Shown: positions 35,810 through 62,900 of the stretch, one piece after another
Numbering within the stretch: the first letter of the stretch is position 1
Layout of the letters: each line of letters begins with the position of its first letter
Assembly: GCA_964428495.1 (NCBI GenBank)
Contig: CAYRXY010000003.1
Location: 9,588 to 73,587 of the forward strand
Length of the DNA: 64,000 bases
Direction: 5' to 3'
Origin: an uncultured archaeon
Lineage (GTDB): Archaea; Aenigmatarchaeota; Aenigmatarchaeia; GW2011-AR5; JAHLMP01
Notes under the pieces: generated by a model
Told to the model about the DNA's origin: nothing
What the model saw: the letters and a program-made list of their open reading frames with translations, nothing else
Database searches by the model: none
Program-made: the position numbers and the translations under genes

Positions 35810-35855
35810 TTTACTTATAACGAAATTTTTATTTTTTATTTCATAATTAATTCTC

Positions 35856-36119
35856 ATGATAGATCAAAGACTGAAAGAAGAAACAGAAAAATGGATCGAT
35901 AAGATAGAAAAAGAGTTGGAATCAACAGGTTTCTACGATGAGAAAGGTAAAGAGTTCTTATTGAATATACATGCCTACGTTGACGATTCCAAGTATTGGT
36001 TGGATCGGGGTGATTTGATAAAGGCTTTCGAAGCGATTATATGGGCTTGGGCATGGTATGAGATCTGTCTCAGATTGGAAATTCTAAAAAATATAAATAA
36101 GCCCGAGGAGGAAGAATAA
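35856..36119 (+). CDS. Hypothetical small protein
   Basis: 87 aa. Ends 3 nt before the pilin-like gene, so likely co-transcribed. Confidence 0.3.
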   Translation: MIDQRLKEETEKWIDKIEKELESTGFYDEKGKEFLLNIHAYVDDSKYWLDRGDLIKAFEAIIWAWAWYEICLRLEILKNINKPEEEE

Positions 36120-36121
36120 TT

Positions 36122-36412
36122 ATGAAGGGTTTAAGTTTACCAATAAATGCAATTGTTATAATCGCAATTGGAATAATTGTTCTTCTTGCATTGACCATGT
36201 TTTTCACAAGTCAATTTTCCAATGCATCATCTAGTATGTCTAAAACCGAAGAAATTCAAAGAGCATGTGCTACTTGGAGAATGACCAACTGTGATGATAA
36301 TTATTGGAATAATAAAAATATATTTAACAGTAAAAATATGTCCGCTATTTGTACATCTGCAGGTTATCCGAATGATAAAGCCCTTTGTAAGGATATTTGT
36401 GGTTGTAGCTAA
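36122..36412 (+). CDS. Prepilin-like protein with class III signal peptide and Cys-rich C-terminus (paralog A)
   Basis: MKGLSLPINAIVIIAIGIIVLLAL, with a KG|L cleavage-type motif. C-terminal 50 aa contain 8 Cys (CATWRMTNCDD...CTSAGYPNDKALCKDICGCS). Confidence 0.55.
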   Translation: MKGLSLPINAIVIIAIGIIVLLALTMFFTSQFSNASSSMSKTEEIQRACATWRMTNCDDNYWNNKNIFNSKNMSAICTSAGYPNDKALCKDICGCS

Positions 36413-37447
36413 TCACATTCTATACTTTTTGTAATATGTAGAATCTTCTAATGGTGCTATCCATCTGTCAACGTATCTTTTCTTGTTTTGAATTATGATA
36501 ATTCTCGATTCCTTGTGTTCGTCCATAAGCTCGAAATCCGGAAGGTATTTTAGAAGCTTGTTCATCCACTCGACAACTTCCTTATGGTCTAACATATGAT
36601 CCTCTTTGAGTCTTACCGTTGAATATCCAACATGCATATATGATTTTGCCTCCACAAAGTGTGGATTCGCTCTTTTGATAAGTTCTGCAATAGCCTTTAT
36701 CTCTTCTTCATGAGTATTCATACCTCTTATAAGCGTTATTCTTATCACAGTCCTCGTGTTGGTCTCCTTAATGAAGTTAAGACTCTCCATAATCTTGTTC
36801 CATCCATCTCTCACAACAGGACAGGATATTTTTTCAAAGGTTTTCTTAGTACCAGCATTTAAAGATAGATAAACTTGTGTGGGTAGTGCGTCTTCTCTTT
36901 CAAGTCTCCACAACATTTCTGGCTCTTCTCCATTAGTTACCAAGAATATAGATTTAGTTTCTGGAAGTGATTTTAGATATTTTATGAGCTCAGGAAGCTT
37001 TGGATAAAGTGTCGGCTCACCACTAAGCGAAATTGCAAAGTGAGATGGTTTAAAAGCTTCTTTCAGAATCTCTTTATCCACCTTTTCATTTCCTCCGAAG
37101 CCGGATAAAAGTTTTCTTCTTTCTTCCAGAAGATGGTTTATAATATCTTCGGATTCATCAACCTCATCCGACTTCATCTCTACTTTATTGTAGAATTCAG
37201 TAGGTCTCCAGCAGTATATACACCTATGATGACAGTACATACCAGCTGGAGAGAATTCCATACATCTATGTGTTTCTATACCAAAAAACTTCCTCTTATA
37301 GCAAATTCCTTCACCTTTCAACGCCTTCTTTGTCCAGTGACAAACATCAACAGTGGAATGATTCCAAACACCATACTGAGCATTTCTAAGCTTTTCTTCT
37401 GTCTTCTTATATATCGCCAGCTTTCCGTTTTCCTTATGAATTGTCAT
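36413..37447 (-). CDS. taw1: tRNA 4-demethylwyosine synthase Taw1 (radical SAM)
   Basis: YKRKFFGIETHRCMEFSPAGMYCHHRCIYCWRP contains the radical-SAM CxxxCxxC and a Tyw1-specific upstream Cys. Confidence 0.8.
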   Translation of the reverse strand: MTIHKENGKLAIYKKTEEKLRNAQYGVWNHSTVDVCHWTKKALKGEGICYKRKFFGIETHRCMEFSPAGMYCHHRCIYCWRPTEFYNKVEMKSDEVDESEDIINHLLEERRKLLSGFGGNEKVDKEILKEAFKPSHFAISLSGEPTLYPKLPELIKYLKSLPETKSIFLVTNGEEPEMLWRLEREDALPTQVYLSLNAGTKKTFEKISCPVVRDGWNKIMESLNFIKETNTRTVIRITLIRGMNTHEEEIKAIAELIKRANPHFVEAKSYMHVGYSTVRLKEDHMLDHKEVVEWMNKLLKYLPDFELMDEHKESRIIIIQNKKRYVDRWIAPLEDSTYYKKYRM

Positions 37448-37499
37448 AACTTTTTGTTATTTGTGAAAAAATTTAAACAAGCTAAAATAATCAATAAGT

Positions 37500-37796
37500 A
37501 TGAAAGGTACAAGTCTACCGGTAAATTCTATAGTAATAATAGCATTGGCAGTAATTGTACTTGTTGCGATCGCCGTTTGGTTTTCGTCAGAAATGCTTCA
37601 CGGACAGAAACAGGTTAACGCCGAGCAGGCATGGGTAAGTGCGTGCAATCAATGGAAAGCTACAAACTGTGATGCAGGACATTTTAACAACACATTAACA
37701 GGATTTCCAGGTATTTCTACTATAAAGGAAGCATGTAAAGCTGCAAGAGGATCAGATGATGCTGACCTATGTAAAAAGCTTTGTTGTGGAGAGTAA
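37500..37796 (+). CDS. Prepilin-like protein with class III signal peptide and Cys-rich C-terminus (paralog B)
   Basis: MKGTSLPVNSIVIIALAVIVLVAIAVWF. C-terminus CNQWKATNCDAGHF...CKAARGSDDADLCKKLCCGE. Clear paralog of 36122-36412. Confidence 0.55.
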   Translation: MKGTSLPVNSIVIIALAVIVLVAIAVWFSSEMLHGQKQVNAEQAWVSACNQWKATNCDAGHFNNTLTGFPGISTIKEACKAARGSDDADLCKKLCCGE

Positions 37797-40240: not shown

Positions 40241-40280
40241 AATGGCTTAGAATTATAAGTCTTCTCGATAAATTTATATT

Positions 40281-40356
40281 GCCCCCGTGGTGTAGTTTGG
40301 ATTAACATGCCACCCTGCGGAGGTGGAGATCCTGGGTTCGAATCCCAGCGGGGGCA
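40281..40356 (+). tRNA. tRNA-Arg (GCG)
   Basis: GCCCCCG-UG-GUGU...ACAU-G-CCACC-CUGCGGA-GGUGG-AGAUC-CUGGG-UUCGAAU-CCCAG-CGGGGGC-A. Confidence 0.85.
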
Positions 40357-40372
40357 TGAAGAGATTAATACC

Positions 40373-44306: not shown

Positions 44307-46346
44307 TCAGGACAAATTCACAGATCCAAATATCATTAATGTAAAGCCGAGAGTTAGAAAGTACATAATGGAGCCGAACCAAAGAATATGAAATATTAAA
44401 TTGTTCTTTCCGATTTTATCCTCACCATTTTGAATCCCGTTTATTAGAGTCCCTACGATATAGGAAGTTAGAATGAAATATATAGAAGACACGAGCTGAA
44501 ATTCCCCTTGTGTAATTTCTAGTTTACCCCACGGTAGAATTAACATGCTAGAAGCATATGTTCCCATAAGTTCTTGTCCGGTAAACTTTGTTGCTATTTG
44601 ATTTATTATATTTATCATAAGGTTTGAAAGCGTTACAATAACACCAGAAACTAATGGAGTCAAAATGTATCCCTGAAGCTTTAGAGCACTGACTATATCC
44701 TCTAAGAGATCGCTTATTCTTTCTTGTGTCTGATGTACATCATAGAGATATCTAGAAATACTCAACATCGCAGAGGCTGCAGCCTGTACACCTTTAGACG
44801 AAACATCAGCAACAGTCCTCATTATTGAATTGATTAGAGTAGATGGATAATAAAGAATAGCACCATATTCTGGATCAAATATAGCCTGTCGAAAAGTCAT
44901 TCCAAGTCTTTTTATGTTTCTAAGAATAATAACAAAGAATTTTTTTATGCTAAGGTTACCTATTGCGTGTATCAGCCTTTCTATTGCAACCTCTAATGGC
45001 ATTCCGGTAGAAAGATAATTTCCAAGTTGAAATAGAGCCTCTGTGAATTCTTCTTCTATTTTCCTTATTTCATTTCTCAATTCTATTCTTTGGAACGATG
45101 AAAGATAAAAATAAGATATTGATCCAACAATAAGACCAAAAGAAATTACTATAGATTGAAATAGATTATTCTCATCGGCCGCTGTAGCATTTATATAGAG
45201 ATGAGAACCGAAAATTATGAAAGGTAAAGCAACCAAAATTGAAAATGGTAGGACGGGAACAAAGTATTTCTTTTTTCCAATTCTTAAGGCAAAGGTCCCT
45301 TCTGGCGGCATATCAGGATGATGAACCGGTCTTATCTCACTAAACGTTGTCGGTCTTCTAGAAAGAATTTCAGAAACAAAAAACATAAGTGCAATTGGGA
45401 GAATTCCATCAAAACCTATGAATAGTATGGATGATTTTATCTTCATAAATATACCCAATACAGGAAATAGAACCATTCCTATGACTGGCAATAGAATTCC
45501 AAGAGCATGAAGAAGCATCACAGGTATTTTAAGTTCTTGTGAATAATGCTTGGCTTTTTCACTTGTTCCATCAAGCACTATCTTAACAGCTTCATCCAGC
45601 ATCTTTAGTCTTCTTTCCTCGGGTTGTGCTAATGCATTCCTTAGTGTTTGAACTGCCTCTATTATATACCGCTCTTCCTTCCATCTAGACAAATATTTCA
45701 TTAGTGCTTCATCAATATTTTCATACTTACCAACTTCAACATCCCATAAAATTTTTCTCATATCATTTGCTAATGGCCCTACGAGATTTCGAGCAGCGAA
45801 ATCAACTGCTCCTTCAAGATTTGGCGACTGTCTTAAATAAACAACCATATACAAAATAAGGAATGGAATTTCTGTTCCTATCTTAGTCATGTATTTTCTT
45901 TTATAGGTTATAGGATAGGTGTACAGATAGTAAGAGAACAACAATTCAAATAATATTATTATAAGTGCATGATTCAACGTAATACCAAGCTTCAGTATGT
46001 TTGATACTACCACAACAACTAAGGTTAAAATAATTGAACTTAAAAGAAAGAGCATAGCAAGAGATGTTGCACCTTCAGGTGTAATCTTCATCTTGGTTAT
46101 CTTTATTGCATCTATCATCTTCTTTTTAGTTTTTTCATCTGGTTGAACTTTCATTATCTTCTCTGCAAATTCACAAGCCTTCTCGTAAACTGTGTCCTTC
46201 TTCTTTAACATCTCTTCCTCTTCTAAAAAGAGCTTGTATTCTCGAGAAGCAAACTTATATGCAGGGACTTCTAACTTAACGTCTGATTTTTTCTTCTCCT
46301 TTTTCTTTTTGAAGAACTTCTTAAACCAATCAAGCATGTTTACCAC
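44307..46346 (-). CDS. Polytopic membrane protein of type IV pilus/archaellum assembly platform type (FlaJ/TadC-like)
   Basis: 679 aa with several TM clusters separated by two large cytoplasmic loops. Overlaps the upstream secretion ATPase by 17 nt. Confidence 0.6.
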   Translation of the reverse strand: MVNMLDWFKKFFKKKKEKKKSDVKLEVPAYKFASREYKLFLEEEEMLKKKDTVYEKACEFAEKIMKVQPDEKTKKKMIDAIKITKMKITPEGATSLAMLFLLSSIILTLVVVVVSNILKLGITLNHALIIILFELLFSYYLYTYPITYKRKYMTKIGTEIPFLILYMVVYLRQSPNLEGAVDFAARNLVGPLANDMRKILWDVEVGKYENIDEALMKYLSRWKEERYIIEAVQTLRNALAQPEERRLKMLDEAVKIVLDGTSEKAKHYSQELKIPVMLLHALGILLPVIGMVLFPVLGIFMKIKSSILFIGFDGILPIALMFFVSEILSRRPTTFSEIRPVHHPDMPPEGTFALRIGKKKYFVPVLPFSILVALPFIIFGSHLYINATAADENNLFQSIVISFGLIVGSISYFYLSSFQRIELRNEIRKIEEEFTEALFQLGNYLSTGMPLEVAIERLIHAIGNLSIKKFFVIILRNIKRLGMTFRQAIFDPEYGAILYYPSTLINSIMRTVADVSSKGVQAAASAMLSISRYLYDVHQTQERISDLLEDIVSALKLQGYILTPLVSGVIVTLSNLMINIINQIATKFTGQELMGTYASSMLILPWGKLEITQGEFQLVSSIYFILTSYIVGTLINGIQNGEDKIGKNNLIFHILWFGSIMYFLTLGFTLMIFGSVNLS

Positions 46347-48564
46347 TTGATTTCAGCCATTCTAACCATCTCTTATATATTTCATTCGAGTCCAACTCCT
46401 CAAACTCTTCCAGAACTTTACTGGAAATCAAATGAAACTGATCATTAGACTTAACAACAAACTCTGCTTCCAAAATTTCTGGATTTTTCTTTCCATATTC
46501 TGCAAGTGTTTTCATTATTTTAGACCTCAACATTATATTGTCCCAGACCTTATCCCATCTTCCTTTCCATTCCCTGACACGGGAGGCTATCTCATTCAAT
46601 ACAAATGATTCGCCGATACTCAATGTTTCGGTTGGTCTCAGTTCATCCTCTTTTGCATGATACTCGAGCAAATCAACAAATCCCCCTTCAGTAAGAGGGT
46701 CTTCCTTCCAATGTTTTCTAACCTCTGTAAGTTGTATTACTCTTCTAAATGTTGTTAAGCCATCAGGAGATCTAAGTCTGTTAGCAATGACTATAATGTC
46801 CGTCGCCTTAAAGCTGGTGGGAGGTACCCCCAAATCATTAACAACTCTATCGTATACACCATAGGGAGAGTCACCGTGTATGGTACCTGCCACTACGTTT
46901 GCTAATGCACCAATACGCATAGCCTCATATAGCGCCTTTGCCTCCACACTTCGAACCTCACCGACAATCAAACACGAATCTCCTAAACGAAGTGCAGTTC
47001 TCAACGCCTCATCTGCAGGAAGTTCTATTTCTACTTGAGTTATAACACTTCGTGATTTCAATTGCTCAATATTATATCCAAGCTCTCTCAACTTTCTTAC
47101 TGGAAGTTCTAATGTATCTTCTAATGTTACGATTCTTGATTTTCTCATTATTTGAAGCATCATCGCACCTAACAATGAAGTCTTACCACTTGAACGAGTA
47201 CCAGCAATTAATATACTCCTTCCATTGTCAACTAAAAACCAAAGTAATCCAGCTGTAAATGGATTTATCATCCTATTTGATACGAATAGAGGAAATGTCC
47301 AAGGTCTTTCTCTATGTCGTCTTAAAGCAAATGCCAAACCTGTTGGTGAAAGTGTTCTCGTAATTGAACAGACTCTTGCATGACCTCCGGGTATAAAAAG
47401 CTCTGTATCGAGAACTGGGTTCGCCTCGTCCAATGGCCTTCCTGATAAAAGTCTCAATCTTGTCGCCCAAGATTCAGCATCCTCTCTACTAGGTATTAGA
47501 TTCGTCTCACACTCCTCAAAGTCGTTGTGAAAGATATATATTGGCGATCTACCTATAGGAGAGTTTACGGAAATATCCTGAATCTTTTCATCTGCAAGTA
47601 AAAGCTCTAAGATACCAAAACCAGCTGTATATCTAGTAAGTATTCGTGCAAGCAAATCTATCTTATCAGATGAAAGCCTTACACCATGTCTATTTGCCAG
47701 ATCAGATACCAAGTCCTTTGAAATGTTGTAAAAGGTTTCCCTCATCGTTTTTGGATCAGATAGTTCCGGTCTTCGTGGCTGGTGAGCTGCAAGATATCTC
47801 CTTGCAGCATCAAGTATTGTATATTCATCCTCTTCCAACCTAAATTCTGGTGGTAACATATGATAAAGATATCGAACCTTTCCAGGTAATCTAAAGATTT
47901 CTACGATTGATTCTCCAACCTTATAACGATAAACAAGCTCTGCATTTTCTGGTGGTATTGCAAGATAATAAGTGTACATAAAGTTCGGTCGAATTGTTGG
48001 ATGAAATATTTCTCGGTAGAATGATCTGTCCTTTATTGGTTTATCTAACACATCCTTAGCCAGTTCAAATATTTCACATCGATCGAGAATTTCCTTCATA
48101 GGAAGTAGAGCTTTTCTTAAGTACTTTGAATAACATTCTTGACATATACCTTTAGACCTTTCTAATCTCACTTTGACATGTCGAATTTCACGTATCAACT
48201 GTTTGTATGCATTCAAAGGATCATACTTAATTTGATCTACTAAATTTCTCAAAAAAGCATATCTAGTGGGAACACACTTATCACATCCTTTTACAGAAAT
48301 ATTTTCTAAAGAAATTAAACGCTTTCTCATTATCTCTTGAATTGCATCTGCAAGTTGAACTAGTAATTTTACTTGGGGATAGTCATACTCATATTCTCTT
48401 GTTTCAGCGAGGACGATTTTAGAAACCTTTTTTACTTCAAATAGCTTCTCAATTATTCTTCCCATACATACTTCGCTATCCTCTATACTTGCTCCATATA
48501 TGCAACCCAGACAGTTAATTCTCATCGTCTGGTTTTTATCATCGTAAGTATAATCACAAACCAT
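46330..48564 (-). CDS. Type II/IV secretion-family ATPase (FlaI/TadA/VirB11-like)
   Basis: Walker A LIAGTRSSGKTSLLGAMM, Asp box, Walker B/His box region DSCLIVGEVRSVEAKALYEAMRIGA...GTIHG. 744 aa. Confidence 0.85.
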   Translation of the reverse strand: MVCDYTYDDKNQTMRINCLGCIYGASIEDSEVCMGRIIEKLFEVKKVSKIVLAETREYEYDYPQVKLLVQLADAIQEIMRKRLISLENISVKGCDKCVPTRYAFLRNLVDQIKYDPLNAYKQLIREIRHVKVRLERSKGICQECYSKYLRKALLPMKEILDRCEIFELAKDVLDKPIKDRSFYREIFHPTIRPNFMYTYYLAIPPENAELVYRYKVGESIVEIFRLPGKVRYLYHMLPPEFRLEEDEYTILDAARRYLAAHQPRRPELSDPKTMRETFYNISKDLVSDLANRHGVRLSSDKIDLLARILTRYTAGFGILELLLADEKIQDISVNSPIGRSPIYIFHNDFEECETNLIPSREDAESWATRLRLLSGRPLDEANPVLDTELFIPGGHARVCSITRTLSPTGLAFALRRHRERPWTFPLFVSNRMINPFTAGLLWFLVDNGRSILIAGTRSSGKTSLLGAMMLQIMRKSRIVTLEDTLELPVRKLRELGYNIEQLKSRSVITQVEIELPADEALRTALRLGDSCLIVGEVRSVEAKALYEAMRIGALANVVAGTIHGDSPYGVYDRVVNDLGVPPTSFKATDIIVIANRLRSPDGLTTFRRVIQLTEVRKHWKEDPLTEGGFVDLLEYHAKEDELRPTETLSIGESFVLNEIASRVREWKGRWDKVWDNIMLRSKIMKTLAEYGKKNPEILEAEFVVKSNDQFHLISSKVLEEFEELDSNEIYKRWLEWLKSSGKHA

Positions 48565-50875: not shown

Positions 50876-51910
50876 ATGAAACAAGTAATTTTATTTTCGC
50901 TCTTAGTATTGTTATGTATATTTCCAGCTCAGTCCTTTGGCGGTTCAGTGCAAACGTGGCCAAAAAATGGAATATTAAATACGATCAATGATTTGATCGG
51001 AGGGGTCGTTAACTTTTTTGAAGGAATTGGAAGTAGCATTACGGGTATGATTACAGCAGTTCCAAAGGGTAGTATCCCATCTAGTGGTACAAAAATCCCA
51101 ACCACACCTACTTCACCAGAACCTATGACAACTCTATCTACAACAACGTCTACAAGCACTTCAACGTCTACCACTACATCGATCGCTACAACAACTACCA
51201 TTCCGACAACAAGCACTTCGACAACCACTACAAGCACTGTTGAGACAACTATACCTACAACTACAACCATAGAACCAACCACTACTGTCAATGAAACAAC
51301 GACAACGATCGAACCTAATACAACAACTACAGTGAACGAAACGACAACTACCATCAATGAAACTACTATCCTTCCTGTAGAAGCTCAGACAAAGAATATA
51401 ACTAGTAATGAAACCACTACCACAGTGGAAACGACTACCACGATAAATCAAACCTTGAACAATGCATTAAACCAAAATAATACCCTAAATGAAACAAATA
51501 TCACACTCACTACTCTACCTTCGACAACTAGTACAATCCTGACTACGACTAGTACGATACCGACAACTACAAGCACTCTGGAAACTACAACCGTGCCAAC
51601 AACGTTGGAAACAACAACTACGTTAAATGAAACCGAACTTCCAAACCTTGTGATTGGTGTTGCTATGCCCAAGAAGATAACAAGAGGACAAAAGTTTTCC
51701 ATAACTGTTAGCGTAAACAATCTAGGAGGTCCGGCTTCGGGACTTGATGTATCATTACTGCTTCCGGATGGATTTGAGGTAATAAGTTATGACTCTGATT
51801 GTTCGTCATTATCATATGGTCAAACCTGTTCAGCGTTGTTCGTTGTGAACAGCTCCCTATCTGCATCTCTGGGGGCAAATAATTTTGGTGTGTTGGTGAG
51901 ATATGAATAA
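50876..51910 (+). CDS. Secreted Thr-rich mucin-like protein with C-terminal CARDB/DUF11-like beta-sandwich domain
   Basis: Signal peptide MKQVILFSLLVLLCIFPAQSFG. About 200 aa of T/S/N-rich low complexity (TTTSTSTSTSTTTSIATTTTIPTTSTSTTTT...). C-terminal ITRGQKFSITVSVNNLGGPASGLDVSLLLPDGFEV. Confidence 0.7.
   Translation: MKQVILFSLLVLLCIFPAQSFGGSVQTWPKNGILNTINDLIGGVVNFFEGIGSSITGMITAVPKGSIPSSGTKIPTTPTSPEPMTTLSTTTSTSTSTSTTTSIATTTTIPTTSTSTTTTSTVETTIPTTTTIEPTTTVNETTTTIEPNTTTTVNETTTTINETTILPVEAQTKNITSNETTTTVETTTTINQTLNNALNQNNTLNETNITLTTLPSTTSTILTTTSTIPTTTSTLETTTVPTTLETTTTLNETELPNLVIGVAMPKKITRGQKFSITVSVNNLGGPASGLDVSLLLPDGFEVISYDSDCSSLSYGQTCSALFVVNSSLSASLGANNFGVLVRYE
51100..51620 (+). repeat. Low-complexity ACN-codon (Thr) tract
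   Basis: Repeated acaac/actac motifs encode poly-Thr/Ser. They generate several spurious antisense ORFs (50929-52114). Confidence 0.7.
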
Positions 51911-53969
51911 AGGAGTAAGTAGTGTAATAGCTGCTGTAATATTGGCATCGGTAATAGCTGTATCTGGACTTGCAGCTGTAAAGCTTTCGACTACAGGACT
52001 TCTCACAGCTGGAAAGATGAAGCAGCAAACATTACCTATGGAAGTGTTTGCTAATACGAATCTAAAACTTTGGTTAGAAAACGATACTCTAAAGGCAAAA
52101 TTAATATTAGACAATGAAACACCAGTCTCTGGTGAAACCGTCTATTTCTCATTTGATCAAAGTAAATACTCCGCCACCACAGATAAGAGTGGTGTCGCTT
52201 CTGTTAAAATAGGAAACTATTCCGGCGCCATTGTCGCATCCTATCCGGGAAATGGTAAGAAATACCTGAATGGGGTAGAGGAAAGTATTAGCACAGAGGA
52301 ACTGGATCTAAGTCAGATTCTTCCTCCTGAAGCAAAGAATGTAGTAGTTAAGGAAAAGGAAACGAGGAAGGTATTAAAGACATTCACGAGAGTAAAAAAT
52401 GTAAAACTGAAGATAATTACACCGAAAACTTCTCTTTTAACAGGGTTTGCTACAAAATCTGAATCATCTAAAATAATAGTTAAGAAACAAATTAGAGCCG
52501 TACTGAATCAACCTGTAAAGTGGAAAATAGATACCGGAAATTACGAAATCGAATATGAAACATCAAAACCAATTGCGAAGGAAATTATGCTGGGAAAAAG
52601 AAAGAAGATAATCGTAGAGTCGAATGCATCAGATCATTATTATAATATTTCCGCATTTACCACGATACCAGAACTCAGCTTTCAACCCCGTCTTTACCAC
52701 ATCGTAAATGGTCAGCGCATCGACGTGACAAATGATCCAAGGTACAACGTCTCCTACTGGGATACGAATGGTAACGGCTTATATGACAAGATTACGTGGA
52801 TTGTTCCGATGTTGAGTAACGATACATACGAAATCGATCTAACAATTCTTAATCTTCAATCTTACCCTACCGTCGGTGGAAACTGGACTGTTAAATTCAC
52901 AACACAAGGTACTGCCGACCTATGGATCAGACCTGTTAACGGAACTACATGGTCGCTCTCTTCCTCAGACAATACCGATCTTCAATTCTTAGATATTCGT
53001 TGTGGTAACGAATCAGTCAACTACCAATGGATTAACGGCTCTGTTTATGTATTGGGCTGGTCATGTAATGAAACAGGATATGAAATTAGTCATGTAAAGA
53101 CTCATGGTCATCATTACTTAGAATTCAAATTTGGTAATACAACAAAGTATGCAGAAAATTTTGCCAGTGGTCAAACAATCTGCGGTGTGACATTTAGTAA
53201 TATTACATACGAATTTTTGAACCCATATGGTAATACAATTTTAGCAGTGGATGACAACGGAAATGTCTTGATCAAAAGTACAAATGTTCATACAAGTACT
53301 GCACCGTCATCTGCACCAGTAAATGGTTTTGGAATTCAAATAAATGGTGTCTGGAATTGGACATTTAATGCAAGTGATGCCTACATTTCTGGTAATATTC
53401 AACGATCAATAATATTACCAACATCGGCGGGAGCGAACGATGTTCTCATAGTAAACGCTAGCAATGGCGTTCCACTCCTTTACTTTAATGGATCTTCTGG
53501 TGATCTATTAGCAAAAGGAGTTGTAGTTTATCAGGGAGCACAACTAAATTGTCCATCTGATGGATATTATTGCTATGCGACATATTATAGGGAACATAGA
53601 AATTATTATTGTAATGTATCATCTGGCGACTGTGATTATACCTACTCAAATCGAATAGATTGTAGAAAATACTGTAAAGATATTTGTCATAGATATACCG
53701 GATGTTCTAGTGGTGCATGTAGTGGATCTACTGCTTGTGCAGATAACTATCATTGTAAAGTTGGTTCAGGATGTATATCAGGTGATGGGTGTAGTGGATA
53801 TAAATTATGTTCATGCTCAGGTGGATCAGCAACATGTGTCTGTAACAAAGCGACATGTCATGCACCATGTGCAACTCATTCAGATTGCCCTTCAGGGTAT
53901 TGCTGTGACATGGGTACTTGTACTTGTTATAAATCTGATGGTAGTCTTTGTCCGGGTATGAACATATAA
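51903..53969 (+). CDS. Large prepilin-like surface protein (class III signal peptide) with extremely Cys-rich C-terminal domain
   Basis: N-terminus MNKGVSSVIAAVILASVIAVSGLAAV matches the archaeal prepilin KG|x hydrophobic-helix pattern. 688 aa. The last about 130 aa contain about 45 Cys (CKDICHRYTGCSSGACSGSTACADNYHCKVGSGCISGDGCSGYKLCSCSGGSATCVCNKATCHAPCATHSDCPSGYCCDMGTCTCY). ATGAATAA overlap with the upstream gene. Confidence 0.6.
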   Translation: MNKGVSSVIAAVILASVIAVSGLAAVKLSTTGLLTAGKMKQQTLPMEVFANTNLKLWLENDTLKAKLILDNETPVSGETVYFSFDQSKYSATTDKSGVASVKIGNYSGAIVASYPGNGKKYLNGVEESISTEELDLSQILPPEAKNVVVKEKETRKVLKTFTRVKNVKLKIITPKTSLLTGFATKSESSKIIVKKQIRAVLNQPVKWKIDTGNYEIEYETSKPIAKEIMLGKRKKIIVESNASDHYYNISAFTTIPELSFQPRLYHIVNGQRIDVTNDPRYNVSYWDTNGNGLYDKITWIVPMLSNDTYEIDLTILNLQSYPTVGGNWTVKFTTQGTADLWIRPVNGTTWSLSSSDNTDLQFLDIRCGNESVNYQWINGSVYVLGWSCNETGYEISHVKTHGHHYLEFKFGNTTKYAENFASGQTICGVTFSNITYEFLNPYGNTILAVDDNGNVLIKSTNVHTSTAPSSAPVNGFGIQINGVWNWTFNASDAYISGNIQRSIILPTSAGANDVLIVNASNGVPLLYFNGSSGDLLAKGVVVYQGAQLNCPSDGYYCYATYYREHRNYYCNVSSGDCDYTYSNRIDCRKYCKDICHRYTGCSSGACSGSTACADNYHCKVGSGCISGDGCSGYKLCSCSGGSATCVCNKATCHAPCATHSDCPSGYCCDMGTCTCYKSDGSLCPGMNI

Positions 53970-53984
53970 ATACGTGTGAGTAAT

Positions 53985-56900
53985 ATGATAAAAAAAATAA
54001 TATCGGCCGCGATTTTAATGTTATTTATATTATCCACTATAGCCTTTTCTTTACCCATATCTTCATCTTACATAGAATCTGGGAATAGTGCGACAGTTCA
54101 AATGAACTCTGGTTCTGTATTTTATGGAGAGGTTGATGCTGGTCAGGTCGTTTCTTGGAAATATCTGAAGTATCAAATTTCTGGAACTGGTATTACTGCA
54201 CAAGCTATGGTTAATGTTTCTGACTATGAAAACTTTGCCTCTGTAAAAGGTAGTACTGGTTGGTTTTCTATTAACGCAGATGGCGTACTTGATATTAAAG
54301 AATTATCATCAACATTTAACCTTCCATATGCACGATATGCTCGATTCGCAATAAAAGGAACTGGAGGAGCCTGGCAAATTGATCAATCATGGTTAGAAAT
54401 TTCCACCGGTCCTGATGTATTTCAACCAAAAACGTATTCTACTACAGGAACAGAAAAAACAACATTTAATGATGGTGATAATGTTGTAATAAAAGTGAAC
54501 GTTACAGATCCTGATGGGGCATCTGACATAGGTAGTGTATTGATAAACATAACTGATCCAAACGGTGTTTCAAGAGTTATAAATGGAGTAATGAGTGTTG
54601 ACTCTTCTATAAGTTACGGAAAAACGTATAGATATAACTTTTCAACTACAAATGTAAATGGGACTTGGTCCTTTACAATAGTGGCAAAAGATTCTACTGA
54701 AAAAACCGATTCAAAAGCTGGATCCTTTGTTATAGTTGATACACATGCACCAACCATTACTCTAAATTCTCCAGCTAACAATGATTGGACAAACAATAAT
54801 AAACCCACATTCTACTTTACACCTGATGATTATATTGATCCGGTTTTGGATTGTAGTCTTTACATTGATGGAAATGCCTGCGGTTCAACAACTGCAGATA
54901 GAGGACAACAATCAAGTATAACATCTACATGTACATTAACTGTTGGAGCTCACAATTGGTATATCAAATGTACAGATGATAAGGGTAATACCGGCCAATC
55001 ATCAGAAACGTGGACGATAAACATTGACACCACTCCACCAACCTATACTTGGCTTTCTCCATTGAGTGGAAGTTGGTATAAAGATGGAGATTCAATTAGT
55101 ATTGATGTTGATGTTTCTGATGGAACAGGTGTCGGAATAAATGATGGGGAAAATTGTAATGTAGAGATAGATGATTCAACGACATCGTTTACGGGGACAG
55201 TTACTTATAGTAGTGCGACAGGTAAATGTACTGGAACGATAAAGCTGAATAATCCATCAAATCTAGCAGAAGGTTCAAATTCTCATTCGATAACTGTTAG
55301 TGTTCCTGACAAGTTAGATAATGTACAGACATCTTCAGGACTGTTAATTTCGATTGATAATACTCCACCAACGATAACTTATGTAACTCTAAGTGATTAT
55401 GATGTTCAACCGGGGACAACAATCACGGTAACTACGGATGGCTCTGATTCACTTAGTAGCATAAATACTTGTCATGCTTATCTTGATGATGACACAAACT
55501 ATGGAAATGGATATCTAGATGACTTGGGTGAGTTAGGAACCGACTGTAGTGGACCTGTAACATTACCTTCTGTTAGCAACGGAATCTATTATATAGTCGT
55601 TAGACCAGTGGATAATGTGGGTCTTTCAAACACGAAGGCAAGTAGTGCGCTTAAAATCGATTCAACTTCCCCATCTTGTTTAATCAAATCAATAAAAGAA
55701 GTTTCTGGAACTGATTATTCTTATGTAAGTGGAACCACGATATGGTACAATAATGTAAGTAGTGGTTCATTCATGGTCAATGTATCTGCAAGTGACGATC
55801 TTGCAGGAGTAAGTAGGGTGGTGTTTCCTGCTACAACATCATCTGGTACAACCGACTATTCATCGCCATATAACCACACATACACCTGGTCTATTGGTTC
55901 GAGTTATTCCAGTACAGCAAATGTAACGTGTTATGATAAGGCAGAAAATTCCGCTACTACTTCATTTACCATAACTTTAGACAATACTCCTCCATCTGAT
56001 GGTTCAATAACTTACACTGATGGTTACTACACAACAAAGAGCGTTTCCATATCATATTCATTAGGTTCTGATAATGTGGGTGGTGTCGGCCTTAACACTG
56101 CAACTGGTAGGATTGAGAGAAACTCAGCACCACTAAGTGGTGGTGTTTGTGGTTCTTGGTCTGGATGGACAACGCTCTTATATGATTCTGATGGAACTCA
56201 TGTAGATGAAACCGTCCAAGATAATTATTGCTATCAGTATATATACAGAATCTGTGACGAAGTAAGCAATTGTAAAAATTACACTTCTACCAATATCGCT
56301 AAAGTGGATTCCGTATTACCAACAATTTCATATATTGAACCACCGACTGAAACAAACAACAGTATTATTCATGAACCATTCATAGAAGTGAAGGTTTCAA
56401 CAAGCGATGCTGGTGCTGGTGTTGATAAGATTACCATCTACCTCTACAGAGCAGATACAAAAGCCGGACCTTACACACTAAATGCGACCAAGACATTATA
56501 CTACTCTGGTCAAACCTCTGCTTCACTCTTGGCAAACTTCACGGGATTGGGAGATGGATTTTACAAGTTCAACGCAACAGTCTGGGATCAAGCAGGAAAC
56601 AAACAATCAACAATGACAAGAACCGTTTCAATAAGTCTTAACCCAACAAACTTAACAGATCTTTCGTATTCCTGTGAAGATGATTGTGGATGGGGTGAAG
56701 CATGGAACTTCACCGCCAACATCACCGACAAAGACAATAATCAACGGCTGAATCTCACGTTGCAGTTGTTTAATAGATCAGGATCCGGAATGTGGGAAAA
56801 CATCGACTCTAAAATAGTGTACAGCAACGGAGATAGTTTTGCCGAGACATTCTCGTTAGATCCTGCCTGGACTAATATAGATTCTAACAAAACAAGGGAG

Positions 56901-59900
56901 TTTAGATTTATGGCCACTGATAACTGGGATGCTACATTCTATAGCGATCCTATAACTGTCGATGTCAAGAGAGATGATGTGCTGTTAAGTATCACAAAAG
57001 GTATTAATGAAATTGTAAACAGGGATGACAGTACCGACTACTCAAATGTAACACTTGAAGCAAGGTTATACGATGTGGATAAAGACGGATACGTAGCTGG
57101 AGAAAACATAGATTTCTTGTTCTTAAATGCTAATGGTTGGATCAAAATAGGATCGTCCACTACAAATGGAAATGGTTACGCTGAATTTATATGGAACCCA
57201 GATTGTACTATCTCACCATTAGGAGAACATCAATGGAGTGTGAACCATTCAACAAGTTCATTATACAAATTTACATCTAACAGTAGTCAAGTAACAATTA
57301 GAGAAAAGCTTCATGTAACCATTTTACAGCCAACTAATGGTGAAATAGTACATAGAAATAAGATATATCAATACTTACGTGCTAGCATTGCCGATTCTTG
57401 TGGGAATGACTTAACATCTAGCTCTACGATAGATTGGTCAACAGGAGCAAAGGGTCCTAGCGTGGAATGGTCAGTACCAGATCAACTAGGGAATTTCACT
57501 ATAACCGTCAATGGAAGTATTTCTGATTCATTTTATGATCCAGGGGACTCGAGTGTCATCGTGAAAATATTTGGATATTCTAAAACCACCGACTTACAAA
57601 CATATGCTCTATGGTCTCATAACGAAACATCAGCAATTAAAGGCGAACCTGTTAAGATAAATTGCAACGTAAATGATGAAAAAGACTCTCCTATATCTAG
57701 CTATCCGGTGAATTTCTCTGTATTCAATTCCACTGGTTCACTAATCTCATCTTATGTAAACTATACCAATTCATCTGGTGTTGCAACGTGGATATGGAAT
57801 ACAAGTGGAAAATCCGTTGAGACTTACACGATAAAATGTTCAATAGATAATATCGAAGATCCTCAAAACCAACTATATTATAGTATTACTAGCGATTATA
57901 ACCAACTACAGAAGAGCTTTGATGTAAAATATCAAGATCGATTACTCCTTGAAACTGATAATAGCTGGATATATAGAAACAACACGTTTAACCCTCACGT
58001 AGCAACAATAACTGCAAAATTCATGAAATCATATGAGGATATGCAAAGTGGATATATAGAATTCACATATAAGAATGGAACACATATAGCCAGTTGTTCA
58101 GCCGATTCATCAGGTACATGTTCAATAACATACGATGAGTCAGACTCCGCAACTCCTGAGGAATATTTAATAAAAGTGGGTGCTGCAAAAGATCTCGATA
58201 ATTTCCTTGATAAAAATTATACTGCAACATCTAATATATCCATAGAAGTAAGAGGTAAATTAAGTCCTGTAACTTTAATCAAACCAATTTCAGAGGCTAA
58301 ATTCAATAAAACGAACTATATAAACTTTTCTTCATCTGTTGAAGATGAAAACGGTAATGTTGTAAATGCTAATGTTTCATATATTCTTTCTGGAAACAAT
58401 AAAGGTGACTTTAGAATAGTAAAGGACGTATCATCTGAAGAGACTAGATGGAAAATATTTAATGATCTAAAACCTGATTCATACTCAATAACTGTAAATG
58501 CAACAAGACCATATTATACAGGTAGTAGTACGCTTGGTTCGAGGAGTATTTACATTTACGGTTTTGCTAACGTCACGAATCTAACATTAGATTATCCTCT
58601 TTACAATGCACCAACAAAGGTAAGCTGTAAGGTAATTGATAGAGACTCATCTGAGCTTCCAATAAGTAAATATAATGTAAGCTTCTGGTATGAGAAGTTG
58701 GGTATATGGACTCTAATAGGGTCTAATCTGACAGACACCAATGGTACTGCTACGATGTGGTGGATTCCTGATATTGTAGGCACAACCAAACTAAAATGTA
58801 ATATTTCTGATCAATTAAAGATATTTTACTATGCAAATCCTTTAGCAAGTGAAGTGATCAATGACACTGTGTCTGTTGGCGATAACGAATCGCCAGAAAT
58901 TCATTCATTTGAAAAAATTGGAACTACACCGTTAGAGGCAAACCATCAGAGCTTGACATTCAAAGCAAACGTAAGCGATAATGTAGAGATAAGTAGTGTA
59001 CGGGTTGAGATTACCGGAGTTGAGAGTGATATTGTTATCTTAAACCCCGAGTCCATAGATGATAGAGGAAATGGAATTTATTCGATAGTTTATACACCAA
59101 AGAAGGGTGGATTTCACTATGCTACATTGTATGTAAATGACACGACTAACAATACCAACTCCAGTGAATCAATTAGCTTTAATGTAATTGGTACTGCTAA
59201 TGAGAGCATGAGTATTACACCAACCTCCGTAACAACGGATGATAACATAACGAGGGATAATCCTTACAACTTTACGCTAAATATTATTGTCAATAACACA
59301 GGATCATCAGATATTATTAACAATGGAACAATGTACAATGTCAACATGTCTCTTGATCTTCCAACCGGTTTCACAACAAAAAATATAACTAAAATATGTG
59401 AATCCGTTCCTGTTGGTGGAACGTGTGAATGGAACCCTGAAATTCAGGTAACGAATATTGTGGATCTCGGTACAAACACAATAACTATTAATGCTAAATG
59501 GAATAACCCAGATAACAGTATATCGACAGATTCTAAATCAATTTCAGTAGATGTTTTGGAACACCCAGAAATATCTATAGAACCTAACCCAGTAATAGGT
59601 ACAGCTAATCACGGAGAGACGATAGAAATACCTATAAATGTTTCAAACTTTGGAAACACAATTCTATATGCAATAGGTTCTTCCTGTTTAACATATACAT
59701 ATCCACTTAATTGTAGCTACATAACTCCATCGATTCCATATAGTTTAAATAAAAATGATACTCAAAGTGGTAATATTGTTGTTAAAATACCAAAAGGTAC
59801 TGATCCTAAACAGTACGAGTGGAAGCTTAGAATTAATTCAACAAAATATGTAAATAGTTATGGTGAATATGTCTCTTGTACTTCACAAGGATGTTATAAA

Positions 59901-62900
59901 GATATTACCGTAGATGTTAATGTAAATGAGGATAAAAGTTGGAGCATCTCACCTAATAAAACAAATCTTTTAGTTCCTATAGAAGATTATAGATCAATAA
60001 ACATAACATTAAACAATACCGGTAATGTTGATAGAAATTGGACTATTTCCACATCGGGCTGTGGTAACATAATTGGTCTAGTTGTATCTCATCCACAGTC
60101 TATATATGTTCCAAAAATCAGTAGCAAGATCATTCCTATAACCATAGATGCAACAAATGCCGAAAATGGTGGAAATTGCACGATAATTATTTCATTCAGT
60201 AATTCTAGTGCAGAACCACAAGCCAATAGCACGGTGATTAACTTAACTGTAGAGGACACCCCACCTAATTTTAATGTTCAGATTCTTCCATACGATTATA
60301 TAGATATGGGCAAAGAGGATGTTACAATAAACGCAACCGTGGGTGATAATAAATTAGTTATCTATGATGGTATCAATCTTACAAAACCAGACGGATCAAC
60401 TATAGTTCTAGTTGGAAAGAAAAGTGTTAGTCGACCATCTGATACAATGACACATGTCATCTTAAGTTCAGAATTAGACCAGCCAGGAGAATATAAAGTA
60501 AAGGTCTATGCATGGGATAATGCCAATCCAAGTAAATATAATGAAACTATTATAACTTTCCATGTATACCCAACAACATCTTTAGCATTAAAGACTAACT
60601 ATACGTCAACTACTATGTTGAATACTGTAGAAGTAAATGGAATAACAGCAGAGGATTCAAAGACTGTATCAGTTAACGTGACTATTAATAACACAAAGAG
60701 GATTGGAGCTTATAATGTTAATCTAACAGGAATCAATGGTCCATTGAATAAAAAATTCACTTTAACACCATCATCACAATACTACAATAAAATAAAGATA
60801 CCTCCTGTTATAAGTAAGGTATTCAATATAACGATACCCGCAGGTACACCACCTTCAGGCTCTACAGAATACTATGTTACATTCGGAGCTCGATGGGAGA
60901 ATCCGGATGGAACAATTGACTCTACTTCAACCCCCTTCTATATTAAAGTAAACCCGACGAAAATATTAGAGATCACATCCAATTCATCGACCTATACCGT
61001 TCCTCACGCATCAAAGAAAACAATAAATATTACTTTATATTCAAGAGGTAATGCTCCTATCGATAACATAAAATTATCATGTGTACCAGTCGGATTGATA
61101 GATTATTGTAAGAATTTCAGCGTATCTATTACACCATCAAGCACAAGTTTAGGAGCCGGAGAAAAGACAATAGCTAAAATGACATTAAATGTCCCATTCA
61201 CATATCCTCCTGGAGACTATAATATAAAAATCGTTGCAAATTCATCAGACTTAAATGACGTAGTAAGTCTTCCTTTAACTATTCACGTACCTGTAGACAC
61301 AACTTGGAACTTAACTCCAACACAATACAACTTCACAACAGGTAGTGGAAGCTATGGATACTTCTATGTCAACGTTTCATCATACGCAAACGTTAACTTA
61401 AGCTTTACAACATCTTACACCAATCCAAACATAACGGCTTCTGAAACAACCTTCACACTCAAAAAAGGCACACTTCGCCTCCTAAAAATTAATTATACGG
61501 CACCAGAACTTGCTGAGAATGAAAATGAAAGAAATATTACTGGAAATGTAACTGTTTCATGTACTGATTGTGGACCTCTACAAAATCAAATACAATCCTC
61601 CACTCTCAATGCAAACATGAGAGTACTTCCATTCAAGCTTTATATAGAAAATATTGAACCGACTAATGATATAAGAGCTGGAGACGAAATTCAGGCAATA
61701 GTAAATGTTACATTTGCGGGTCAAATCTTAACAGATCCAAAACTCGTAGCATTCAATGCATATATAGGAGATAAACCATGTGAAACTACAAGTGAATTAT
61801 TCAATATAAGTAAATGGAAGGTAAGATTCAAAGCACCAACACTCCCAGACGGGAAGAATTACACGTTGAGAATAGAAGCTATTCAACTACAATACAATGC
61901 AAGAACTCCAAGATATTTCAATTACATCCATTATAAAGACGTGACCCCTCCTAACATAACATCTGTTAAAACGAGCTTCATAGAACCACAAAAACCTGAA
62001 GAAATATACGTTAATGTAACCGACAATGTTAAGGTAGACAAAGTCTGGATAGTAATATACCACAATGGATCCGTATTTGGAAGCTTTAATTTAACTAACC
62101 TTACAACTAACTTCGTAAATTCAAAATGGAAATGGAAATCACCAGCATTAACTCTCCCAGGAGATTATGATGTTGTAATTTATGCAAATGATACTACTGG
62201 TAATATAGCAAACCTAAGTACATGGTTCAGAGTTAATCAAAAGGTTAGAATAGAGGGAATTGTAAAAGATGTTAAAGAAAATCCAGTACCAGTAGAATTA
62301 GGAATTTATAAGAATACAAAAGCTGGAATAGGTTCGTACATGGTTACAAAAATCATGAATCATACTGGAAGTTACAACGTAAGTATACCTAAAGGAAAAT
62401 ATGACATCACGATTAAGGCATTAGGTAATGAATTCACATTCAGAGATGTGAATGTTGAATCCAACTTAACAAATATAACCAGAGTGAGTGATGTTGATCT
62501 AAGTGTTGTAACTTCACAACTACCTCTAGAGGGGGGACAATTACTAGGAGCGATAGGAATTGAACATAACATTTCATATTCATCTGCAGATGTTATCTTG
62601 AACTTTTCATCAGAAAATCTGATTCCAGGAGATCTCGGACTGAAGAATATTGAGGTATATAGATGTGATGATTGGGACTTTGATAATCAAACATGTAATG
62701 GTGAATGGACCAAGGTAGAAAATACTGAGGTTGATGTGGCAAACTTACTCATAAAGGTACCGTCAACAAAGCTTTGTGCATTTGTAATTGTAAAACCAGC
62801 TGTTGCACCTTCTACAGTTACAGTTCCGCCACAGCAACCGACATCACCTGGAGGTGGCAGCACAGGCATATCATCTCAGTTAGAAGAGGCTTTAGAGAAA

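Follow-up and report, generated by a model that had tools for sequence, protein, structure and literature searches.

Two short genes in a 64,000-nucleotide stretch of DNA from an uncultured archaeon of the Aenigmatarchaeota (contig CAYRXY010000003.1; G+C content 35%), which at its full 64 kb is called the window throughout, encode small Cys-rich proteins that we interpret as anciently diverged filament subunits resembling type IV pilins. The named members of their family come almost entirely from Aenigmarchaeota, a lineage of tiny, probably host-dependent archaea within the DPANN, and from the sequences we put the probability of this reading at about 0.68. The first gene, P1 (36122-36412, + strand), specifies a prepilin-like product of 96 amino acids (aa) in which an MKG leader and a hydrophobic helix precede a 6-Cys head; the second, P2 (37500-37796, + strand), specifies a 98-aa prepilin-like paralog, likewise with 6 Cys. 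The predicted role is well supported by the conservation of an N-terminal motif, by the predicted fold and by the gene neighborhood.

The P1/P2 family, its N-terminal motif and predicted fold

The pair had been remarked upon in an earlier note on this DNA, which described two paralogous genes with class III-type N-termini and Cys-rich C-terminal domains on either side of the oppositely oriented gene taw1. Much of that description stands. Both open reading frames (ORFs) are present at the coordinates noted, on the + strand, and their paralogy is clear: the alignment that the note had proposed, when run, extended from end to end with 38% identity (E 4e-22). The flanking of an antisense taw1 gene also stands, but the cysteines had been miscounted. 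Each protein has 6 rather than 8, located at positions 49, 57, 77, 89, 93 and 95 in P1 and at 49, 57, 79, 91, 95 and 96 in P2, and the spacing given as C-x4-W is C-x2-W in the sequence, within the shared motif A-C-x2-W-[RK]-x-T-N-C-D. Position 35856, from which the region had been counted, is the ATG of a separate DUF357 gene and not of the pilin pair. In its source annotation P2 is 'hypothetical protein J7L43_01495'. The contig is also contained in SRR7051160, SRR7051159 and SRR35108318.

Word-indexed protein searches with P1 or P2 singly returned only self matches, and the family emerged solely when the two sequences were combined in a profile. An exhaustive hidden Markov model (HMM) search with this two-sequence P1/P2 profile against 1.84 billion protein cluster representatives recovered 642 of them at E<=1e-3, of which 71 reached E<=1e-10; most were 90-130 aa long and matched end to end. 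At the level of sequence this similarity is far beyond chance. The earlier note had allowed for the paralogs being peculiar to this genome; the 642 representatives found at E<=1e-3 show instead that the family is conserved outside it. All named members are labeled 'hypothetical protein', and the names come from metagenome-assembled genomes (MAGs) of Aenigmarchaeota/Aenigmatarchaeota, with one from a 'Bathyarchaeum' bin. A 1899-aa protein, P0082, was rejected as a spurious match; its six aligned stretches correspond to profile positions 43-71 and lie in a repeated W/G-rich motif, and the whole protein contains just 7 Cys. Phage origin was also checked, and no tblastn match was found in the phage collection. 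The small members of the family are likely under-called in metagenome annotations: an intact P1 ortholog of 95 aa with 6 Cys (L006:2955-3242) is uncalled in the source annotation of its Logan contig. A third paralog in the MAG of the window, P0006 (J7L43_02550, 94 aa), is located on another contig (L008:232-516; GCA_021160745.1, JAGHBY010000087.1). Downstream of it are genes for a protein of 579 aa, in which Asp-rich repeats resemble thrombospondin type 3, and for a secreted protein of 918 aa that is very rich in Cys.

The N-terminus of the family has the form of a class III (prepilin-type) signal peptide. P1 begins MKGLSLPINAIVIIA and P2 begins MKGTSLPVNSIVIIA; with the predicted cut marked by a slash, the starts are MKG/LSLPINAIVIIAIGIIVLLALTMFF and MKG/TSLPVNSIVIIALAVIVLVAIAVWF, such that KG/LSLPIN in P1 corresponds to KG/TSLPVN in P2. 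If the precursors are cut after the Gly, the mature proteins would be 93 (P1) and 95 aa (P2) long. The consensus drawn from 148 members is K(141)-G(137)-[LIVM]-[S/E]-L(139)-P(141)-[I/V]-N(119), with Lys at -2 in 141/148, Gly at -1 in 137/148, Leu at +3 in 139/148 and Pro at +4 in 141/148. Position +5 is I or V rather than Glu, and +6 is N. In the same 148 members the K-G motif is followed by about 20 hydrophobic residues ending in FF. Residue +1 is I, L, V or M in 186/192 members. The leader is K/R-rich and variable, from 3 to about 35 residues, and in 83/148 members it is just MKG. Several of the long leaders have no internal Met, and therefore they are not start-codon artifacts. At the sites of archaeal class III signal peptidases, positions -2, -1 and +1 are decisive; a positively charged residue occupies -2, and Glu is not required at +5 (PMC3387779). 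P1 agrees with these published features in its charge at -2, Gly at -1, suitable +1 residue and hydrophobic stretch of about 20 residues at the N-terminus. A processing site would be expected to keep a near-invariant K-G at a constant distance from the helix whatever the length of the leader, and a plain membrane anchor would not need this. The prepilin-like interpretation of the earlier note thus agrees with the pattern seen across the family.

Sequence conservation extends into the C-terminal head. In an alignment of 116 members (A2), C49, C57, C93 and C95 are invariant, and C77, C89, K2, G3, L6, P7, V20, L21 and F28 are conserved in at least 90% of the sequences. AlphaFold2 models built with family alignments have the same architecture for both paralogs (pLDDT 90.8 for P1 and 92.9 for P2): residues 1-7 are non-helical, a single continuous helix of about 47 residues runs from 8 to 54, and a loop then leads to two short helices. 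In the P2 model the helices are 8-54, 75-83 and 88-96. The modeled layout resembles the 'lollipop' of type IV pilins with a very small, all-helical head of about 40 residues, and the long predicted N-terminal helix gives further support to the prepilin-like reading. Nine sequences have lost C77 and C89 jointly, and two sequences retain only C49 and C93. From these patterns of loss we infer the pairing C77-C89, C49-C93 and C57-C95, in which C49-C93 and C57-C95 would probably fasten the C-terminal helix to the end of the long one.

Candidate assembly machinery and alternative readings

Genes suited to the assembly of such subunits are located 6.5 kb downstream of P2. A TadC/FlaJ-like polytopic platform protein with nine hydrophobic segments is encoded at 44307-46346 (- strand; Pfam T2SSF, sub-threshold at E 5.8e-4), and a secretion/assembly ATPase of the T2SSE/VirB11 family, 744 aa long with a Cys-containing N-terminal extension, at 46330-48564 (- strand; Pfam T2SSE, 1.3e-15). 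In L006 the platform gene is about 5 kb from the pair. The earlier note had suggested that the pilin-like genes might serve this Tad-like machinery, and the suggestion gains weight from another genome (L009), where members of the family are found directly beside the orthologous ATPase and platform genes. There, as in L010, a tandem family pair, P0165 and P0187, adjoins a T2SSE ATPase/TadC-like operon and is transcribed divergently from it. The L009 ATPase is 58% identical to that of the window over its full length; the L009 platform protein, encoded two genes from the pilin pair, is 41% identical to its window counterpart; and the pair is the sole pilin-like gene set beside the ATPase. The protein encoded at 44307-46346 is thus a candidate assembly platform for P1 and P2. 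The N-terminal extension of the ATPase contains several Cys (C3, C18, C21 and C33 among them) and is conserved in the L009 ortholog; it resembles the Cys-rich N-terminal domains described in some subclades of archaeal pilus ATPases (PMC4858521).

If P1 and P2 are pilins, the precursor would insert into the membrane by its hydrophobic N-terminal helix, and a signal peptidase of class III would remove the short basic leader after the conserved Lys-Gly. The ATPase and the TadC-like platform (44307-48564) would then extract the mature subunits of about 93-95 aa and polymerize them into a filament, with the N-terminal helices of about 47 residues forming its core. The two-helix head of about 40 residues would face outward, probably stapled to the helix end by the disulfides C49-C93, C57-C95 and C77-C89. 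P1 and P2 could be either alternative or co-polymerizing subunits, and the likely role of the filament would be attachment to a surface or to a host.

A number of findings weigh against a pilin identity. No Pfam or NCBIfam model covers the family; neither P1 nor P2 matched the Pfam pilin families at E<=1, and P1 had no NCBIfam match at E<=0.01. Sporadic sub-threshold matches to prepilin and archaellin models of NCBIfam, spanning E about 1e-3 to 6e-3, occur among the 116 aligned members: NF007660 in 2/116 (~1e-3), TIGR02537 in 1/116 (E 0.006) and TIGR01710 in 1/116. A Foldseek search found no solved structure resembling either model. In a sequence-profile search of the PDB the best match was to the N-terminus of an archaeal filament subunit ('Flagellin', 8fk7) at E 0.077, followed by PilE1 (8pfb) at E 0.84, both N-terminal and non-significant. 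The predicted head does not have the beta-sheet typical of most type IV pilins, and the Thr at +1 in P2 is atypical, being found in only 2/192 members. No class III signal peptidase (PibD/FlaK/EppA, Peptidase_A24) is present among the multi-transmembrane ORFs of the window, and most family members adjoin housekeeping genes rather than machinery. DPANN genomes have been anticipated to hold pilins without detectable similarity to known ones (PMC6393860).

Several of these points would also be consistent with P1 and P2 being uncleaved, type II signal-anchor membrane proteins that display the stapled ectodomain on the cell surface as an envelope or S-layer component or as a receptor, and never polymerize. 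Both have a single N-terminal hydrophobic helix and match no curated pilin model, no peptidase gene was found in the window, the neighbors of family members are mostly housekeeping genes, and the predicted head is not of beta-sheet type. We nevertheless consider simple anchors unlikely. They have no need of a K-G-x-x-L-P that stays near-invariant and at one distance from the helix while the leader ranges from 3 to about 35 residues; the predicted helix continues about 25 residues past the membrane span, as in the alpha-1 helix of pilins; and the L009 pair borders on the genes for the ATPase and platform. It is still harder to see in these proteins disulfide-rich peptides (antimicrobial, toxin or signaling) that are secreted and released once the hydrophobic N-terminus has been removed, and such a function appears very improbable. 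The small Cys-stapled C-terminal domain and the fast evolution of heads between close strains would suit it, but conservation in the family is strongest over the 28 N-terminal residues, the part that would be lost, and of the inferred disulfides two connect the head with the long helix through C49 and C57. Moreover, the hydrophobic stretch is not followed by a Sec-type cleavage motif, and no bacteriocin family was matched above noise.

Within the pilin-like proteins there is the question of which part P1 and P2 might play. The earlier note had thought of minor or tip pilins, and they could more broadly be pseudopilin or minor-pilin parts (a secretion piston, a bindosome-like scaffold, a priming or tip component) in a genome whose main pilin is encoded outside the 64 kb in view. 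The paralog P0006, beside genes for large Cys-rich secreted proteins on its own contig, would accord with this, as would the members in L011-L014, which adjoin operons of other prepilin-like proteins. Set against it is the finding that the window has no other small class III-like ORF; the L009 pair, too, is the only pilin-like set beside the ATPase, and the family at large is made up of small, abundant, multi-copy and often stand-alone members, as has been reported for the major pilins of archaea (PMC4858521). An accessory role is for these reasons quite unlikely in our estimate. We think it more likely that P1 and P2 are major subunits of the filament than tip pilins, since the window holds no small class III-like ORFs besides these two and since members of the family are typically found as stand-alone pairs or arrays beside housekeeping genes.

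The operon just mentioned is conserved, and in L011-L014 family members follow it; it contains other proteins with a KG-hydrophobic N-terminus and a gene for a large M23/amidase hydrolase. It was examined upstream of the pilin pairs at L011:1-7930, L013:1-6481 and L014:1-6968, where its products are a protein of some 350 aa, a pair of membrane peptides of 40-50 aa, a membrane or secreted protein of about 540 aa, KG-hydrophobic proteins of 130-160 aa and Cys-rich proteins of about 380 aa, and where it ends in the gene for the large cell-wall hydrolase (Peptidase_M23, optionally combined with Amidase_2 and SLT). The smaller proteins of this operon had no Pfam match. It may represent a host-attack or minor-pilin module.

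A scan of the window for the class III pattern found one further ORF, which encodes a 688-aa protein (51903-53969, + strand) with the class III-like N-terminus MNKG/VSSVIAAVILASVIAV (MNKG/VSSVIAAVIL; also VSSVIAAVILASVIAVSG). Its C-terminal 130 or so residues are extremely rich in Cys, and it has no Pfam match. By its sequence this protein may serve the same filament system as a large minor pilin or an adhesin. Directly downstream is a giant ORF (53985-64000, + strand) that runs off the end of the window after more than 3,338 aa; its first 1,338 residues contain bacterial Ig-like and macroglobulin-type domains (Big_13, E 6.7e-16; Big_7 and MG2 more weakly), and it is a probable giant surface adhesin. 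Upstream, at 50876-51910 (+ strand), a 344-aa secreted protein without a Pfam match is encoded. It has a long Thr/Ser-rich, mucin-like region of low complexity (TTTS/TTTI repeats), and the strand opposite its gene carries spurious Val-rich ORFs.

Gene order, taw1 and a strain-level breakpoint

The gene between P1 and P2 (36413-37447, - strand) encodes a Radical_SAM domain (PF04055, 2.7e-17) and a C-terminal Wyosine_form domain (PF08608, 8.2e-21), both above the Pfam gathering scores, and on this basis it can be identified as taw1/TYW1, as the earlier note had it. Its stop codon abuts that of P1. The order in the window is TyrRS-SerRS-DUF357-P1-taw1(-)-P2-Ham1-EF1B-EF1A. In L006 the same genes are found in the order TyrRS-SerRS-DUF357-P1-P2-Ham1-EF1B-EF1A, with P1 and P2 in tandem, a 32-bp spacer between them and no taw1, and nucleotide similarity to the window resumes exactly at the ATG of P2. 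L007 has DUF357-P1-Ham1(-)-P2(-), again without taw1 at this position. The closest relatives of P1 are the L006:2955-3242 product (52% identity) and P0005 (49%); those of P2 are P0003 (65%), P0004 (50%) and P0007 (45%). The two types thus form separate orthologous groups, and since each protein is closer to its orthologs than the 38% that separates P1 from P2, the duplication is older than these species. Pairs and arrays of family members are the rule elsewhere, for example the tandem pair of L016 and the three members plus a fourth of L015, and another housekeeping gene, Alba, breaks up the array in L013-L015.

The earlier note had left open whether a pilin gene was duplicated around taw1 or taw1 was inserted between two copies. 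The separate orthologous groups and the L006 tandem without taw1 do not bear out the former, and the L006 arrangement agrees with the latter. Most parsimoniously, taw1 came to lie, in this lineage, in the spacer of a P1-P2 tandem that was already there. We see no functional connection between taw1 and the pilin-like genes, and regard the bracketing as an incidental rearrangement. A conserved link between the two was rejected, no family member being found near taw1 in two Thaumarchaeota genomes and one metagenome contig; these distant taw1 loci are 40-55% identical, and the scans reach only loci that share exact peptide patterns, so sampling is poor. Further along the window, a tRNA-Arg(GCG) gene (40280-40357, + strand) lies directly downstream of EF-1alpha, in a stretch 92% identical to L006, where its neighbors differ. 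The region from this tRNA gene to the TadC-like gene is different in the window and L006.

Upstream of P1 is a DUF357 gene of the arCOG01224 type (35856-36119, + strand; Pfam PF04010, E 6.7e-12), whose stop codon is 2 nucleotides (nt) before the P1 ATG; a GGAGG-like stretch is found about 10 nt upstream of this ATG. The junction of the DUF357 stop and the P1-type start, TAATTATG, is identical in three genomes (window 36117-36124, L006:2950-2957 and L007:5996-6003). DUF357, a conserved cytoplasmic housekeeping gene, is thus stably coupled to the pilin-like gene, and from the sequence the two are probably co-transcribed. P2 is preceded by a divergent intergenic spacer of 52 bp (37448-37499) with the sequence TTTAAA at 37472-37477, about 25 nt before the P2 ATG, and without a Shine-Dalgarno sequence. 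In L006, TTTATAAA is found at the equivalent distance before the P2 ortholog. This arrangement suggests that P2 may have its own promoter and a leaderless mRNA. A scan for sigma-70 promoters and terminators gave counts at the level expected from shuffled sequence, and the sigma-70 model is not applicable to archaea.

Comparison with L007, a close relative of the window genome (protein identity 93% for SerRS and 98% for DUF357), places a breakpoint in P1. Nucleotide identity of 90-91% extends from 35845 to 36163 of the window (L007:5724-6039), through DUF357 and into P1 to about codon 14, where it stops. Past this point the L007 P1 ortholog is 49% identical overall, Ham1 is inverted and 66% identical at the nucleotide level, and nothing further matches the window. 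The 5' end of the pilin gene thus coincides with a recombination or rearrangement breakpoint between close strains, and head sequences evolve quickly between such strains. For this single genome pair the breakpoint would fit replacement of the head domain; an exchange of heads between strains might be suggested by the change from 90-91% identity to unalignable sequence some 14 codons into P1. Recombination at the conserved 5' coding region is a known feature of allele exchange in bacterial pilins. One might go further and propose that the family forms the main surface filament by which Aenigmarchaeota contact their hosts, with the stapled mini-head as a specificity cassette that is swapped by recombination in the 5' region. 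We offer this as a speculative extension and hold it to be rather doubtful. If true, it would provide for specificity toward hosts or surfaces at the level of strains, and for a new minimal pilin architecture, a helix with a three-disulfide knob, that has no solved counterpart.

Significance and comparison with known pilins

DPANN archaea, the Aenigmarchaeota among them, are mostly uncultured and appear to depend on contact with a host, and the molecules of contact are largely unknown. The family described here provides a concrete and widespread candidate for a filament subunit, recognizable by the motif K-G-[LIVM]-[SE]-L-P-[IV]-N and 6 Cys, with a predicted fold and a partner ATPase and platform. 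Its profile could improve the annotation of type IV filament systems in Aenigmarchaeota genomes, and the breakpoint that falls within the pilin gene hints that the exposed head may vary in the manner of a cassette. We found no description of the family in the literature searched, which took in the principal surveys of type IV pili in archaea as well as a 2026 preprint on archaeal filament systems of type IV.

Bacterial type IVa pilins (PilE/PilA) share with P1 and P2, as these are predicted, an alpha-1 helix, a C-terminal region locked by a disulfide (the D-region) and fast-evolving heads. P1 and P2 differ from them in the absence of the G/F-(T or S)-L-x-E motif, of Glu at +5 and of a beta-sheet, and in having three predicted disulfides instead of one. 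The bacterial type IV pilin motif in its broader form, G/[FM]-[TS]-L-x-E, is likewise not found in the family, and the models for bacterial N-terminal methylation (PF07963 and TIGR02532) had no match in it. A very small mature subunit, a single long helix and a TadC-like platform are features in common with the head-less Epd pilins of archaea (arCOG06620) and the Flp/Tad pilins of bacteria; archaeal Epd has been described as having no globular domain, like the Tad pilins (preprint 10.64898/2026.04.22.720090). In contrast to both, P1 and P2 retain a head predicted to be disulfide-stapled, have no Flp G/xxxxEY motif and show no detected sequence similarity. We do not assign them to Flp/Tad: the EY is absent, the predicted mature proteins of 93 and 95 aa compare with head-less ones of about 50-60 aa, and no match to the Flp family was obtained.

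The closest likeness is to the archaeal type IV pilins (PilA/Aap/Ups/Epd), which have the same basic leader, K or R at -2, G at -1 and a hydrophobic helix of about 20 residues leading into a long alpha-1. They also occur as several paralogs per genome, frequently as stand-alone genes, and are associated with a T2SSE ATPase and a TadC/FlaJ-like platform. P1 and P2 differ from them in matching no curated model (TIGR02537, Pfam), in the family motif [LIVM]-[SE]-L-P-[IV]-N at +1 to +6 with its near-invariant Pro at +4, and in a predicted head that is a two-helix knob of about 40 residues with six conserved Cys in place of a beta-sheet domain. The extreme diversity of archaeal pilins is known, and we do not propose a new kind of system. 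The family is best regarded as a sizeable, previously unannotated member of the archaeal type IV pilin-like proteins, made distinctive by its own N-terminal motif and its predicted three-disulfide mini-head.

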